Assembly: GCA_042217555.1 (NCBI GenBank)
Contig: JBDGSL010000022.1
Location: 1-27,839 of the forward strand
Reading direction: 5' to 3'
DNA: 27,839 nt
Origin: Candidatus Nanohalobium sp.
GTDB lineage: Archaea > Nanohalarchaeota > Nanosalinia > Nanosalinales > Nanosalinaceae
Made by a program: the position numbers and the translations under genes
Shown: positions 10,386 to 25,828 of the stretch, in pieces
Layout: every line of letters starts with the position of its first letter
How positions within the stretch are numbered: position 1 is the stretch's first letter
Notes under the pieces: model-generated
Told to the model about the DNA's origin: nothing
The model's input: only the letters and a program-made list of their open reading frames with translations
The model's database searches: none

Positions 10386-10886
10386 GTCCCTTCTGGAGAG
10401 AAAAAAGGTTTTCCGGGCGTTCTACAGGCTTCCAGTAAAGGGACTTTGAGAGGTATTCCCGGGAAAAAAGGGGGGGGGAAGGGGAGTGTTCTGATTTTTT
10501 CTCCGGGAAACCACTTCTGTAGTCCACTGGAAAACCTACTTGCCCGTCCATTCTCTCCAGATGGGACCGTTGAAATATCTGTTTTTAAGGATTTTGGAGG
10601 AGTCCCGGCGGAACACAAAAGGGGGGGAGGGGAGTTTTTTGTCTTCGCCCGGACTCCTCCTAACATGACGACGAAAGCCGGAGACTTTCTGGAGTCGAAG
10701 ACTTCTCAGTCTTCTGTGCCGAGAAACCTGTCAAGGTTTCGGCCCAGGAAAATCTCCGATTTTCGTACTTTTCAGGCCCTTGCAGGACCTCTTTGAAGCC
10801 TAAGGCTTCCATTGGTGGAAAATCCTTTCCGGATTTTCTGTTAAGCAGGAGACCTCCGATCTTCAGTTTTTTCGAAATTTGGAGGC
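10386..10886 (-). ncRNA. Candidate structured RNA or long ftsZ 3' trailer (alternatively a replication-origin-like region)
   Basis: Non-coding and densely palindromic. Two long stems with homologous polypurine/polypyrimidine loops (10386-10567, 10596-10660) are followed by at least 7 short hairpins, one with a GAGA tetraloop on the minus strand. Confidence 0.5.
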
Positions 10887-16140: not shown

Positions 16141-16419
16141 TTAGAAATCTTCAAGGTTTCTTTCTCCTAAATCTTCTTTTCTGTCCAGAAACTTATCCTT
16201 CAGTGATTGGCTTAATGCTCCGAATAGCTGTGTAAAGTGGCTTTCTCCTGCTTGTTCTGCATCCTTCTTGAAACGGTCGAAGCTGGCAGCCAATTTCAAA
16301 GCCGATTATTTGTCGGCAGAATCGAGCCTTTCAGCCGCCTTCTCCAAGAAAAATGTTTCAATTTCTGCCTTTCTGTCTCGGTCTTCGGTTTCCAGTAGTT
16401 CCTCGAACTTGTCCTGCAT
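16141..16419 (-). pseudogene. ~92-codon acidic helical protein with internal TAA (16306-16308)
   Basis: MQDKFEELLETEDRDRK...DSADK*SALKLAASF...GERNLEDF*. The frame is protein-like on both sides of the stop, and the C-terminus resembles a PIP box. Confidence 0.55.
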
Positions 16420-16513
16420 ATCTCTGAATTATTGTGCAAACCTTGTTATTTTTGTGCGATTTTTGTGCAGAAAGGGAGGGTTTGTGCAAGCCAAAAAAAG
16501 AGAAAGGTTTTTT

Positions 16514-16855
16514 TGGGGGTGGTAGGATTTGAACCCACAACCTACCGCTTTCTCCGGGAACTTCTGAAAGTTCCATCATCAGAAGCCATGACAAGCATGG
16601 CTTACAGGGATGTAATCATCGGAACACGAAGATCCGAAAGATCTTCTCGAACTGACACGCAGAAGCGAGCCAGTGTTCCTCATCCCTCCAGTTCGCGTAA
16701 CAGGGTAAGAGATGGTTCCTGAGAACCATCAGGTACTGTCGACCTGCTCCAAACCACGTTGCGGTTTGTGTGAATCCAGAAAATCCTTCTCAGGATTTTC
16801 GTCTGCTACGGTAGTCGCTGGAGGCGGTCGCTCTCCCAGGTTGAGCTACACCCCC
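16514..16855 (-). tRNA. tRNA-Trp(CCA) with a 268-nt intron at 37/38 (intron 16550-16817)
   Basis: Acceptor GGGGGTG/CACCCCC+A, anticodon stem ACCGC/GCGGT with loop CT-CCA-G|A, T arm GTGGG-TTCAAAT-CCTAC. BHB-like junction with a CTCC/GGAG central helix. CCA not encoded. Confidence 0.95.
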
Positions 16856-16903
16856 TCTCTCTTTCTTTTTTTCTTCCTGTGTTTGTGGAGTTGTTGGCTA
16901 GTT

Positions 16904-18133
16904 TTATATTATGTTGATTGTCTGGTCTGTGATTTTGTATGTGGTTGCTGTTGCCATGATTAGGATTCCGGCGATGGTGAGTGGCATTGATGGTGTGGCG
17001 ATGGCTGCTGTGATTCCTGAGAGCATGCTGGGGAATGCGTTTCCGAGCGCTCTGATGCTTTGGTTGGTGCCGAGTGCGAGACCCTGGTTTTTTTCACTGG
17101 CTTTGTTTGAGACCAGTGTGTTTAGGCTGATCTGTGTTATGGAGTTGTTGAATGAGAACAGTGTTACTACTGCCATGAATGCTGTCAGGGAGTTTGGTAT
17201 GGGTTGGAGGAAGATGAAGAGTCCTGTGAGGAAGAGTGTTATCGGCATGACGTTTTCTTCCCTGTATCTGGTGAACAGTTGCGGAACTATGATTCCCTGG
17301 CCTATTATAAGCAGTATTCCGATGTAGAGGAAGAAGTTACCGGTTTGGAACTGTGTGAATCCGAAGTTTTTGACGAGGTAGACCGGTATGAAGGTTGTGA
17401 AGAATGCAAAACCTGAGAAGTAGAAGAAGTTGGCGGTGAAAAGCTTTTTCAGGCCTGGAAGTGTCAGTCCTTTCTTTAACTGGGTTAATGGTTTCAACCA
17501 GTCTATATGCTTGTCTTCCATTGGACTGGTCTCCTTGAGTGAAATCCTTACGTATACAAGTGAAAGTGCTGAAAGCAGGGCTGCGAACCAGAATGGGAAT
17601 GAGGCGGAGAAGAAGGGTAGGAAGTCGGATGACAGGAATCCTCCGAGGAAAGGCCCCAGGATAAAGCCTATTCCGTATGCCATGCCTATTATACCGAAGT
17701 TTTTGGACTTGTTGCTGTCTTCCGTCACGTCTGCGATAGTTGCCTGGGCTACAGAGATAAGGCCTCCTGTTAGACCGTTGACTATCCGGGAAATGAATAG
17801 GACTGCTATGTTACCCAGGGTTATGCCTACTGCGAATATAACAGATGCCAGTACTGTTCCCAGTATCGAGATCTGTATGGTCTTTCTTCTCCCGTATATG
17901 TCGCTTATTTCGCCGAGTATAGGGGTAGAAACAAACTGTGAAAGCGGGTAAAGACCTATCAGCAGTCCTAACAGTATGTATCCGGTCTGTATGGACAGGT
18001 TTTCTGGAAGCATGAAGAACCCTGAACCGGGCTCTGTCAGGAGAAGAGGTACTATAGGAAGCAGTATACCGAAGCTTATAACCTCTGCAACGATAGTAGG
18101 GAAAAGGGTACGGATAACTTTTGAACTACTCAT
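16904..18133 (-). CDS. MFS transporter, DHA1/TetA-like
   Basis: About 12 TMs, motif A GEISDIYGRRK, motif C GFILGPFLGG. ATG at 18133 preferred over TTG at 18154. Confidence 0.92.
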   Translation of the reverse strand: MSSSKVIRTLFPTIVAEVISFGILLPIVPLLLTEPGSGFFMLPENLSIQTGYILLGLLIGLYPLSQFVSTPILGEISDIYGRRKTIQISILGTVLASVIFAVGITLGNIAVLFISRIVNGLTGGLISVAQATIADVTEDSNKSKNFGIIGMAYGIGFILGPFLGGFLSSDFLPFFSASFPFWFAALLSALSLVYVRISLKETSPMEDKHIDWLKPLTQLKKGLTLPGLKKLFTANFFYFSGFAFFTTFIPVYLVKNFGFTQFQTGNFFLYIGILLIIGQGIIVPQLFTRYREENVMPITLFLTGLFIFLQPIPNSLTAFMAVVTLFSFNNSITQISLNTLVSNKASEKNQGLALGTNQSIRALGNAFPSMLSGITAAIATPSMPLTIAGILIMATATTYKITDQTINII

Positions 18134-25610: not shown

Positions 25611-25805
25611 GCGGGGGTAGCCAAGTGGTCAAAGGCGCAGGGTTTAGGAACCTTCAGTTTCCAGACGGAAACAAGGACCGAGAAGACGAAAATCCACCAA
25701 TGGATTTTCTCAAAGAAGATTCCGAAGGCAAACTTCGGATCTCTGATCTTCAATTAAAATACCCTGTCGGTTAGCCGTTCGCAGGTTCAAATCCTGTCCC
25801 CCGCA
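25611..25805 (+). tRNA. tRNA-Leu(UAG) with a 112-nt intron at 37/38 (intron 25649-25760)
   Basis: Acceptor GCGGGGG/CCCCCGC+A, anticodon stem CAGGG/CCCTG with loop TT-TAG-G|A, long variable arm CGGTTAGCCG, T arm GCAGG-TTCAAAT-CCTGT. BHB with TTTA/TAAA helix and GGA/ATA bulges. Confidence 0.95.
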
Positions 25806-25828
25806 CTACAGCCTTTCTGTTTAATTCA

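Follow-up and report, generated by a model that had tools for sequence, protein, structure and literature searches.

Why should the single tRNA-Trp gene of a nanohaloarchaeon carry an intron of 268 nt, and what could the many hairpins in it be? This question is raised by contig JBDGSL010000022.1 of Candidatus Nanohalobium sp. (GenBank assembly GCA_042217555.1), whose whole stretch of 27,839 nt was analysed and is called the window here. The tRNA-Trp(CCA) gene in the window is probably functional and single-copy, and its intron would be composed of a guide core and accessory hairpin modules, with methylation and splicing using alternative folds of the precursor. The gene has the following parts.

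16514..16855, minus strand: tRNA-Trp(CCA) gene with a cloverleaf, exons 80-98% identical to the Trp genes of relatives
16818-16855, minus strand: exon 1
16550..16817, minus strand: bulge-helix-bulge (BHB) intron of 268 nt at the canonical 37/38 site, after G37
16514-16549, minus strand: exon 2
16552..16555, minus strand: GGAG, the intron strand of the 4-bp central splice helix, pairing with CUCC at tRNA 32-35 (window 16820-16823)

A complete cloverleaf was obtained by joining the two exons, as expected for an archaeal BHB intron, with a 7-bp acceptor stem, D arm, T arm, anticodon stem ACCGC/GCGGU, anticodon loop CUCCAGA, G at position 39 and discriminator A. No other tRNA-Trp was predicted in the genome (1.31 Mb, 88 contigs, 94% complete). 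The gene was missed by ARAGORN at default settings and by Rfam at the gathering score. No Rfam family was matched by the intron at that score either, and an E-value scan of 16300-17100 (E up to 10) gave chance-level matches only, such as SNORD66 with 17 bits against a cut-off of 32. When introns were allowed, ARAGORN placed the intron at 16552-16819, displaced by 2 nt with the length unchanged; the boundaries 16550-16817 were favoured because they fit the splice geometry and because CCUCCAG and A38 are invariant in relatives, while the adjoining intron letters vary. Thus the preliminary description, made from the letters of this DNA, was right that a non-coding intron of this length and with these ends interrupts a tRNA-Trp gene: the cloverleaf is complete, the lineage is nanohaloarchaeal with a core common to relatives, and no open reading frame (ORF) of at least 40 aa lies inside the intron on the tRNA strand.

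About 50 nt of the intron form a conserved core, and about 210 nt belong to accessory hairpin modules. The core contains the following elements.

16685..16691, minus strand: guide CUGGAGG, antisense to tRNA positions 31-37; G16687 pairs with C34, the fifth base upstream of AUGA
16680..16683, minus strand: D'-like box AUGA, which forms the non-bulged kink-turn strand; the base before it, G16684, is variable
16673..16679, minus strand: GGAACAC, 5' arm of the canonical stem of the kink-turn, pairing with GUGUUCC at 16621-16627, with covariation
16621..16627, minus strand: GUGUUCC, 3' arm of the same stem, with covariation
16613..16620, minus strand: C'-like box GAUGAUUA, with the loop G-A-U at 16618-16620, GA at 16616-16617, then UUA
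16604..16612, minus strand: pyrimidine spacer CAUCCCUGU, able to form a helix with AGGGAUG in the 3' part of the guide

The core YUGGAGG-N-AUGA-[stem-closed insert]-RAU-GAUUA(A) was identified in 37 of 38 distinct tRNA-Trp genes, collected from Nanohaloarchaeota and two other DPANN records. A divergent form (CCGA/GACGA) occurs in one Trp gene, and one locus of another family, L029, is a Trp gene without the core. The spacing GGAGG-N-AUGA was invariant in all 31 parsed genes, in which the insert ranged from 11 to 59 nt and its closing pairs 1-3 were always canonical. For the first four stem pairs, 119 of 124 cells were paired, against a mean of 81 and a maximum of 93 in 1000 shuffles of partners; with the 17 Trp genes found by tRNA homology and not by the motif pattern, it was 64 of 68 against 45. 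L029 and L057 were left out of this count, the 3' stem not being found by the script, and L057 has the core by eye. In the 18-sequence alignment A1 the stem was 97% paired with both-sided changes at three of the four pairs, the covariation score was reached by none of 500 shuffles, and registers slid along the sequence were at most 51% paired.

The geometry is that of a kink-turn: the stem ends with C-G, the 3' strand continues with a loop R-A-U and then G-A, the G-A of the 5' strand abuts the stem, and the next pairs are U.U and U-A. The consensus of the C-type box is RUGAUGA and that of the D-type box is CUGA. The C' box AUGAUUA has one change from the former, G to U, which matches the change of C to A in the D' box, so that the two departures compensate each other, a G-C pair becoming U-A. 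With this compensated AUGAUUA/AUGA pair beside a covarying stem, as looked for in a box C/D guide, the core is predicted to form one kink-turn of the D'/C' type. The TGATGA pointed out in the preliminary description does exist (16575-16581) but is not the partner of the D-like box; that partner is GAUGAUUA, on the other side of the covarying stem GGAACAC/GUGUUCC. With a covariance model of the core, a single match per genome was obtained in 35 of the 70 genomes examined in the order, and within the family in 33 of 49. Its one match in this genome (16610-16693, E 0.007) was weakened by the 59-nt insert. A loose kink-turn regular expression run over the whole genome was dropped, since its 103 matches were mostly chance.

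Counted from the box, base 2 of the guide strand faces C31, base 3 C32, base 4 U33, base 5 C34, base 6 C35, base 7 A36 and base 8 G37. Box C/D enzymes methylate at the fifth pair from the box. C34 stands at this N+5 position in 31 of 31 parsed Trp genes and in 24 of 24 tRNA-Met genes, and the antisense match CTGGAGG-G-ATGA with C34 at +5, read earlier from this one sequence, is conserved as YUGGAGG-N-AUGA in the 37 Trp genes with the core. RNAalifold on eight Trp genes also paired the anticodon loop with the guide.

The same device of guide plus kink-turn was found in elongator tRNA-Met(CAU) of this genome (G000 C31:50-239), which has a 117-nt intron. Across relatives (L175-L199), RUGAG(C/U)-N-(A/C)UGA-stem-GAUGAU(U/C) is present in 24 of 24 distinct Met genes, with introns of 42-262 nt, and the D' box in more distant families is the consensus CUGA. 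The Met element is complementary to positions 31-37 of its own tRNA in the same register as in Trp, with C34 as the fifth. In this way the antisense element changes with its target while box and spacing stay, which is the strongest support for a guide. Fibrillarin and Nop5 are encoded by adjacent genes on C76, and L7Ae is also encoded, so the protein set that the preliminary description wished to see checked is complete in the genome. A guide with two motifs for Cm34 and Um39, as in Haloferax, was not borne out: one kink-turn only is supported, position 39 is G, and no conserved duplex with exon 2 that could guide position 39 was obtained for the spacer following C' or for the 5'-terminal CUACCG of the intron. 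The earlier guide proposal thus appears right in substance with its boxes re-assigned, and methylation of C34 is what these comparisons would predict.

The splice site has the bulges AA|A38 on the 3' side and A36 G37|C on the 5' side, in the geometry of a BHB, and GGAG-NN|A is kept in relatives. In a strict hBHBh' check, h has 5 bp, H is CUCC/GGAG and both 3-nt bulges could be drawn, with h' of 1 bp (G16816-C16556); the Trp splice motif is a relaxed BHB form. Where the outer helix would be, a hairpin is stacked:

16557-16574, minus strand: hairpin Y, GGAACUU-UCAG-AAGUUCC, abutting the splice helix

In relatives the splice helix is always directly adjoined by hairpin Y or, at the 5' end of other introns, by the reverse-complement counterpart of Y, and because of this Y probably substitutes for the absent outer helix. 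A single EndA gene was identified (182 aa, PF02778 and PF01974, the N-terminal and catalytic domains), of the single-unit type and aligning over its full length with the M. jannaschii homotetramer chain 1a79. RtcB is encoded too. Its matches at G000 C12:82506-85223 come in two pieces within an open frame of 951 aa, about twice the usual size, which suggests an intein or other insertion.

From gene anatomy, conservation, covariation and this protein set, we infer methylation, an order of events, a circular product and the role of hairpin Y. The AUGA and AUGAUUA kink-turn would be bound by L7Ae, which would recruit Nop5 and fibrillarin; CUGGAGG would pair with tRNA 31-37, and C34, at the fifth pair from the box, would be 2'-O-methylated. 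This pairing excludes the splice structure, because the same CUCC pairs with the terminal GGAG of the intron, and the two steps would therefore use alternative folds of the precursor. Afterwards EndA would cut at 37|38, RtcB would join the exons, and RtcB probably circularises the excised intron. The competing stem AGGGATG/CATCCCT seen earlier is present: the spacer and guide helix has 78.9% of its cells paired on the alignment, with limited covariation and some A-U/G-C exchange. In several relatives the terminal GGAG is an alternative partner for this spacer. These pairings fit, without proving it, a precursor that alternates between one fold for methylation and another for splicing.

The minimum free energy of the intron is -100.2 kcal/mol, against -77.9 +/- 5.1 for 200 dinucleotide shuffles (z -4.38, none of the 200 as good), and all hairpins listed in the preliminary description are present in the sequence and in this fold. 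The antisense strand folds well too (z -3.82), so the strand assignment rests on the tRNA and not on fold energy. Four sequencing runs were compared as DNA contigs. X1 and X2, both labelled salt-lake metagenomes, hold most of the window (1.00 and 0.92 of the sampled words), and X3 and X6 reach the exons only. One 9081-nt contig of X1 spans 16558-17100 without any difference; X1 is possibly the source sample, and its agreement is therefore not independent. Assembly graphs break at the modules, with contig ends at 16558-16586 in X1 and X2. Another X1 contig joins exon 1 to the core region (16675/16818), omitting about 142 nt, and probably comes from a relative in the same sample whose 5' block is shorter and of another kind.

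Several observations weigh against a guide intron of this kind. There is only one kink-turn and both its boxes are non-consensus. No terminal C and D boxes were found in the short introns of 48-62 nt, so the two-motif arrangement of C/D plus C'/D' is lacking there, and candidates for a second kink-turn, at the flanks of hairpin B or from hairpin Y with GGAGA, were inconsistent across relatives or unfit in the window. The guide duplex has 7 bp, while archaeal guides usually use about 10-12 bp. Pairing with the spacer behind C' can make the guide and some of the D' box inaccessible. Half of the genomes of the order gave no match to the core model, some of them being incomplete or having long inserts. 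Single-unit EndA is classically held to require the strict splice motif, yet the outer splice helix here has just 1 bp and the sole EndA found is of this type; in DPANN archaea, EndA of the single-unit type has been described to co-occur with disrupted tRNA genes (PMC5829648). In addition, X2 does not cover 16597-16758, which leaves the middle of the intron without independent assembly support.

The remaining length is made of accessory blocks in three places: 126 nt before the guide (6-9 in the minimal form), 59 nt inside the kink-turn stem (11 in the minimal form) and 62 nt after C' (12-15 in the minimal form). Each of the three expansions occurs separately in relatives, and G049, of another genus, has all three in an intron of 196 nt. 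Besides hairpin Y, the blocks contain the following.

16692..16817, minus strand: 5' accessory block of 126 nt, with a CGAC..GUCG helix, a GAUGGUUC/GAACCAUC hairpin and a closing CGUAGCAG/CUGUUACG helix
16744..16802, minus strand: window-specific insertion of 59 nt with repeated AGCAG at its flanks (alignment A2)
16628..16672, minus strand: nested two-hairpin domain, with CUGGCUCGC..GCGUGUCAG, GUUCGAGAAG and the hairpin GAAGAUC-UUUCG-GAUCUUC
16557..16603, minus strand: 3' accessory block, with hairpin X AAGCCAUG/CAUGGCUU at 16583-16603 and UGAUGAU at 16575-16581

Apart from the 59-nt insertion, the 5' block is common to seven aligned relatives. The insertion, absent from these seven, consists of the hairpins GAAAAUCC-UGAGAA-GGAUUUUC (16779-16800) and AAACCGC-AAC-GUGGUUU (16751-16767), and it appears to be recent. 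Its unit, an A-hairpin GAAAAUC..GAUUUUC together with an AAACC..GGUUU hairpin, occurs 14 times in the genome and not once in the reversed genome; away from tRNAs, 24 A-hairpins (GAAAAUC) were counted, 19 of them outside long ORFs. The nested domain (GUUYGAGAA) is present in 7 of 35 introns of this genome, where about one was expected, and also in Trp and Met introns of several other genera. The 3' block matches introns of tRNA-Arg(UCU), Leu(UAA), Thr(GGU) and Leu(CAG) and four sites outside predicted tRNAs. G002, of the same genus, has a different 5' block, which matches the tRNA-Thr(UGU) intron of this genome.

Modules of the Trp intron thus recur in other introns, in a tRNA spacer and in intergenic DNA, and they were gained or lost between close relatives. 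The earlier view of an expanded RNA with extra domains of unknown function holds for the expansion, relatives having introns of 48-62 nt, while the domains proved to be copies of hairpin modules; they appear largely explained as shared modules that turn over rapidly, and most of them are probably dispensable passengers.

Similar hairpins were noticed at further loci. In the window, tRNA-Leu(UAG) at 25611-25806 (plus strand), the sole tRNA found there by Rfam at the gathering score, has a 112-nt intron in which the hairpin GACGAAAAUCC..GGAUUUUCU and an element GAAGAU..GAUCUUC of the Trp intron recur. The intergenic stretch 10670-10880 of the window is packed with intron-module hairpins (GAAAAUC..GAUUUUC twice, GAGAAACC..GGUUUC, GAAGCC..GGCUUC); it starts with GGACTCCTCCTAAC, resembling the Arg(GCG) and Asn introns at their 5' ends, and no tRNA was called in it. 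The spacer between tRNA-Val and tRNA-Met on the same strand (G000 C31:240-425, L174) holds modules as in the Arg(GCG) and Thr(CGU) introns and is bounded by the inverted repeats GGUUACGC...GCGUAAC. Two more loci with module copies lie outside predicted tRNAs: G000 C7:3918-3990, an element of about 85 nt between two similar GGAGGTG..ATG stretches before a gene, and G000 C27:26640-26960, a module array bounded by direct repeats ATATAAGAGCGTAACCTTATGC.

Could the accessory blocks instead be functional parts of a stable circular RNA? In such a circle the 3' block would supply a circularly permuted second C/D kink-turn, and the excised intron would be a complete two-motif guide ribonucleoprotein, or a carrier of further guides or protein-binding sites. 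UGAUGA(U) is conserved before hairpin Y, hairpins X and Y covary, and xxGA stands directly 5' of hairpin X in 6 of the 11 sequences with a recognisable X, among 14 folded 3' regions; the enrichment of the nested GUUYGAGAA domain in introns would suit this explanation, and the circular Trp intron is described as stable in Haloferax and Sulfolobus (PMC3326292). However, the permuted motif of xxGA, hairpin X and UGAUGAU fits some relatives only: the D-like position in the window reads UGUA instead of xxGA, and the loop between hairpin X and GA measures 2-8 nt in relatives, against the 3 nt of a kink-turn. Many relatives keep the core alone in introns of 48-62 nt, a member of the same genus has 75 nt, the 5' block of G002 is wholly different, and a target for the spacer that separates C' from hairpin X was not found. 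We consider this explanation unlikely.

A different role for the core itself, as a kink-turn with an element antisense to the anticodon loop that keeps the precursor in a given fold, seems quite improbable. In this role it would be an RNA chaperone or would time splicing or aminoacylation, with no protein other than L7Ae and without guiding methylation. The antisense stretch measures just 7 nt and competes for four bases that the splice helix also uses, and a single kink-turn is unusual in methylation guides, but masking would not need the invariant spacing that sets C34 at N+5 in Trp as well as Met introns. The genome encodes fibrillarin and Nop5, and in Haloferax it is established that the Trp intron guides Cm34 (PMC4090602). 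That the locus is a decaying pseudo-tRNA, or an assembly chimera with repeats stitched into the gene, is hardly credible, even with several modules being genome-wide repeats, contigs of X1 and X2 ending inside the intron and the 59-nt insertion being found in this genome only. Against it stand the perfect cloverleaf of the sole tRNA-Trp in a 94%-complete genome, the intact core and splice helix, the X1 contig running through 16558-17100 (with X1 possibly the source sample), and the same three-block architecture, without the insertion, in G049. A guide core carrying accessory modules in a working tRNA-Trp gene is the explanation that we prefer.

How far the core and the length extend was followed in relatives. 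The search with the tRNA-Trp gene gave matches in 34 of 41 relatives, and ARAGORN called tRNA-Trp in 18 of the returned loci, all of them with an intron. A scan with the core pattern, using one genome per species, gave 109 stretches, with origins given for the 80 listed; among these matches listed, 16 are in tRNA-Trp introns, 10 from Nanohaloarchaea, Nanohalarchaeota or Ca. Nanosalina, 1 from Woesearchaeota and 5 from untitled archaea. A further copy of the core was found in tRNA-Trp of a 'Nanoarchaeota' record. Matches in Methanobrevibacter were rejected as coding sequence, and bacterial ones as coding or chance. Several Trp genes of relatives agree letter for letter with those of named records, which places the genome in the Nanosalina family.

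The Trp introns of the 38 distinct genes have 48-268 nt with a median of 105, and the one in the window is the longest; within the genus they have 75, 159, 213 and 268 nt. Other long introns in relatives are of 213 and 196 nt in Trp and of 262 and 203 nt in Met. In this genome, 35 of 42 tRNA predictions of ARAGORN, about six of which look doubtful, have introns, of 33-268 nt with a median of 76. Thus the intron is unusually long for tRNA-Trp, as had been proposed, while long introns packed with hairpins are usual in the lineage. To the extent that the preliminary description feared that they might be routine, this was partly so; no description of them was found in full-text literature on tRNA introns of Nanohaloarchaeota and DPANN archaea. 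Genome papers on cultured nanohaloarchaea give only counts of intron-bearing tRNAs, 15 of 39 and 4 of 38 (PMC10266531), and a 2014 review quotes archaeal tRNA introns of 11-129 nt, with medians of 12-25 nt and a Trp median of 65 nt (PMC4090602).

Upstream of the gene, an element AATATAAAAC(T)(A/G)GCC at 16893-16907 (minus strand), common to three relatives of the same genus, is likely a TATA-type promoter, and the window has an additional purine tract between it and the tRNA. TTGTGC(A/G)A is repeated four times at 16430-16490 (plus strand), spaced by about 10-13 nt, just downstream of the T-run terminator of the tRNA. The purine-rich leader 16856-16880 and the pyrimidine-rich trailer 16490-16512 can pair with -15.7 kcal/mol; a splice-like motif formed by them was rejected, because they are purine and pyrimidine tracts whose pairing is not conserved in the nearest loci of the same genus, L006 and L007 (-5 against -15.7 kcal/mol).

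A wider generalisation is offered only tentatively, and we hold it possible rather than probable. In Nanohaloarchaeota, and in some other DPANN archaea at least, the introns of tRNA-Trp and tRNA-Met might be single-kink-turn 'half-mer' guides, ruled by a methylate-first switch of four elements (exon CUCC and the internal pyrimidine mimic on one side, guide GGAG and terminal GGAG on the other), and serve as safe landing pads for mobile hairpin modules of a family spread over the genome, giving the largest ORF-free tRNA intron circles that we have found reported. This would account for the several-fold change of intron length within one genus, from 75 to 268 nt. The intron here is twice the maximum of 129 nt quoted in the 2014 review (PMC4090602), in which a function of archaeal tRNA introns is given for essentially one case, the euryarchaeal Trp guide. 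A stripped-down guide with one kink-turn, retargeted in tRNA-Met, would challenge the view that two juxtaposed motifs are required by archaeal C/D enzymes. The natural series of 75, 159, 213 and 268 nt, with filled and empty insertion sites, shows a route to study how archaeal introns grow, and it bears on the tolerance of single-unit EndA and on the role of a large RNA circle in a cell with a 1.3-Mb genome.

The closest known system is the pre-tRNA-Trp intron of Haloferax volcanii, a box C/D guide RNA of 103-105 nt that forms a stable circle and guides Cm34, for which Clouet d'Orval 2001 and Singh 2004 are cited as sources (PMC4090602, PMC3326292, PMC7714728). Both systems have the same tRNA and 37/38 site, an antisense element against the anticodon loop that sets C34 at N+5 of a D'-type box, mutually exclusive guide pairing and splice structure, and L7Ae, Nop5 and fibrillarin. 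Unlike the Haloferax intron, the one here has the D'/C' motif only, without terminal C and D boxes and without a guide for position 39; its boxes are AUGA/AUGAUUA, its guide is 7 nt, a stem with as much as 59 nt, and not a short loop, connects its D' and C', and it is 268 nt long against about 105. The 66-nt intron of elongator tRNA-Met in Nanoarchaeum equitans, for which a C/D-like RNA was suggested by RNA-seq and box motifs (PMC3491384), is likewise a guide-like RNA in a non-Trp tRNA intron of a DPANN archaeon. There a stable RNA was seen; here the Met device recurs in 24 of 24 genes of relatives, and the support is comparative, from a retargeted guide and a covarying stem read in sequences alone.

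The transposed BHB tRNA introns of Thermoproteales (Fujishima et al. 2010, summarised in PMC4090602) are similar in that related intron sequences are found in different tRNA genes of one genome, which points to transfer between tRNA genes in both cases. They differ in that whole introns move to new sites there, while here the units are hairpin modules smaller than an intron, inserted into a pre-existing functional intron and present also in a tRNA spacer and in intergenic DNA. With the archaeal C'/D' kink-turn or K-loop, the core shares a stem ending in C-G, a 3-nt loop ending in U, tandem G.A/A.G followed by U.U, and a D' box upstream of C'. It departs from that motif in its fourth pair, U-A and not G-C, and in its long closing stem, which makes it a kink-turn and not a K-loop; the motif stands alone here, as a natural 'half-mer'.

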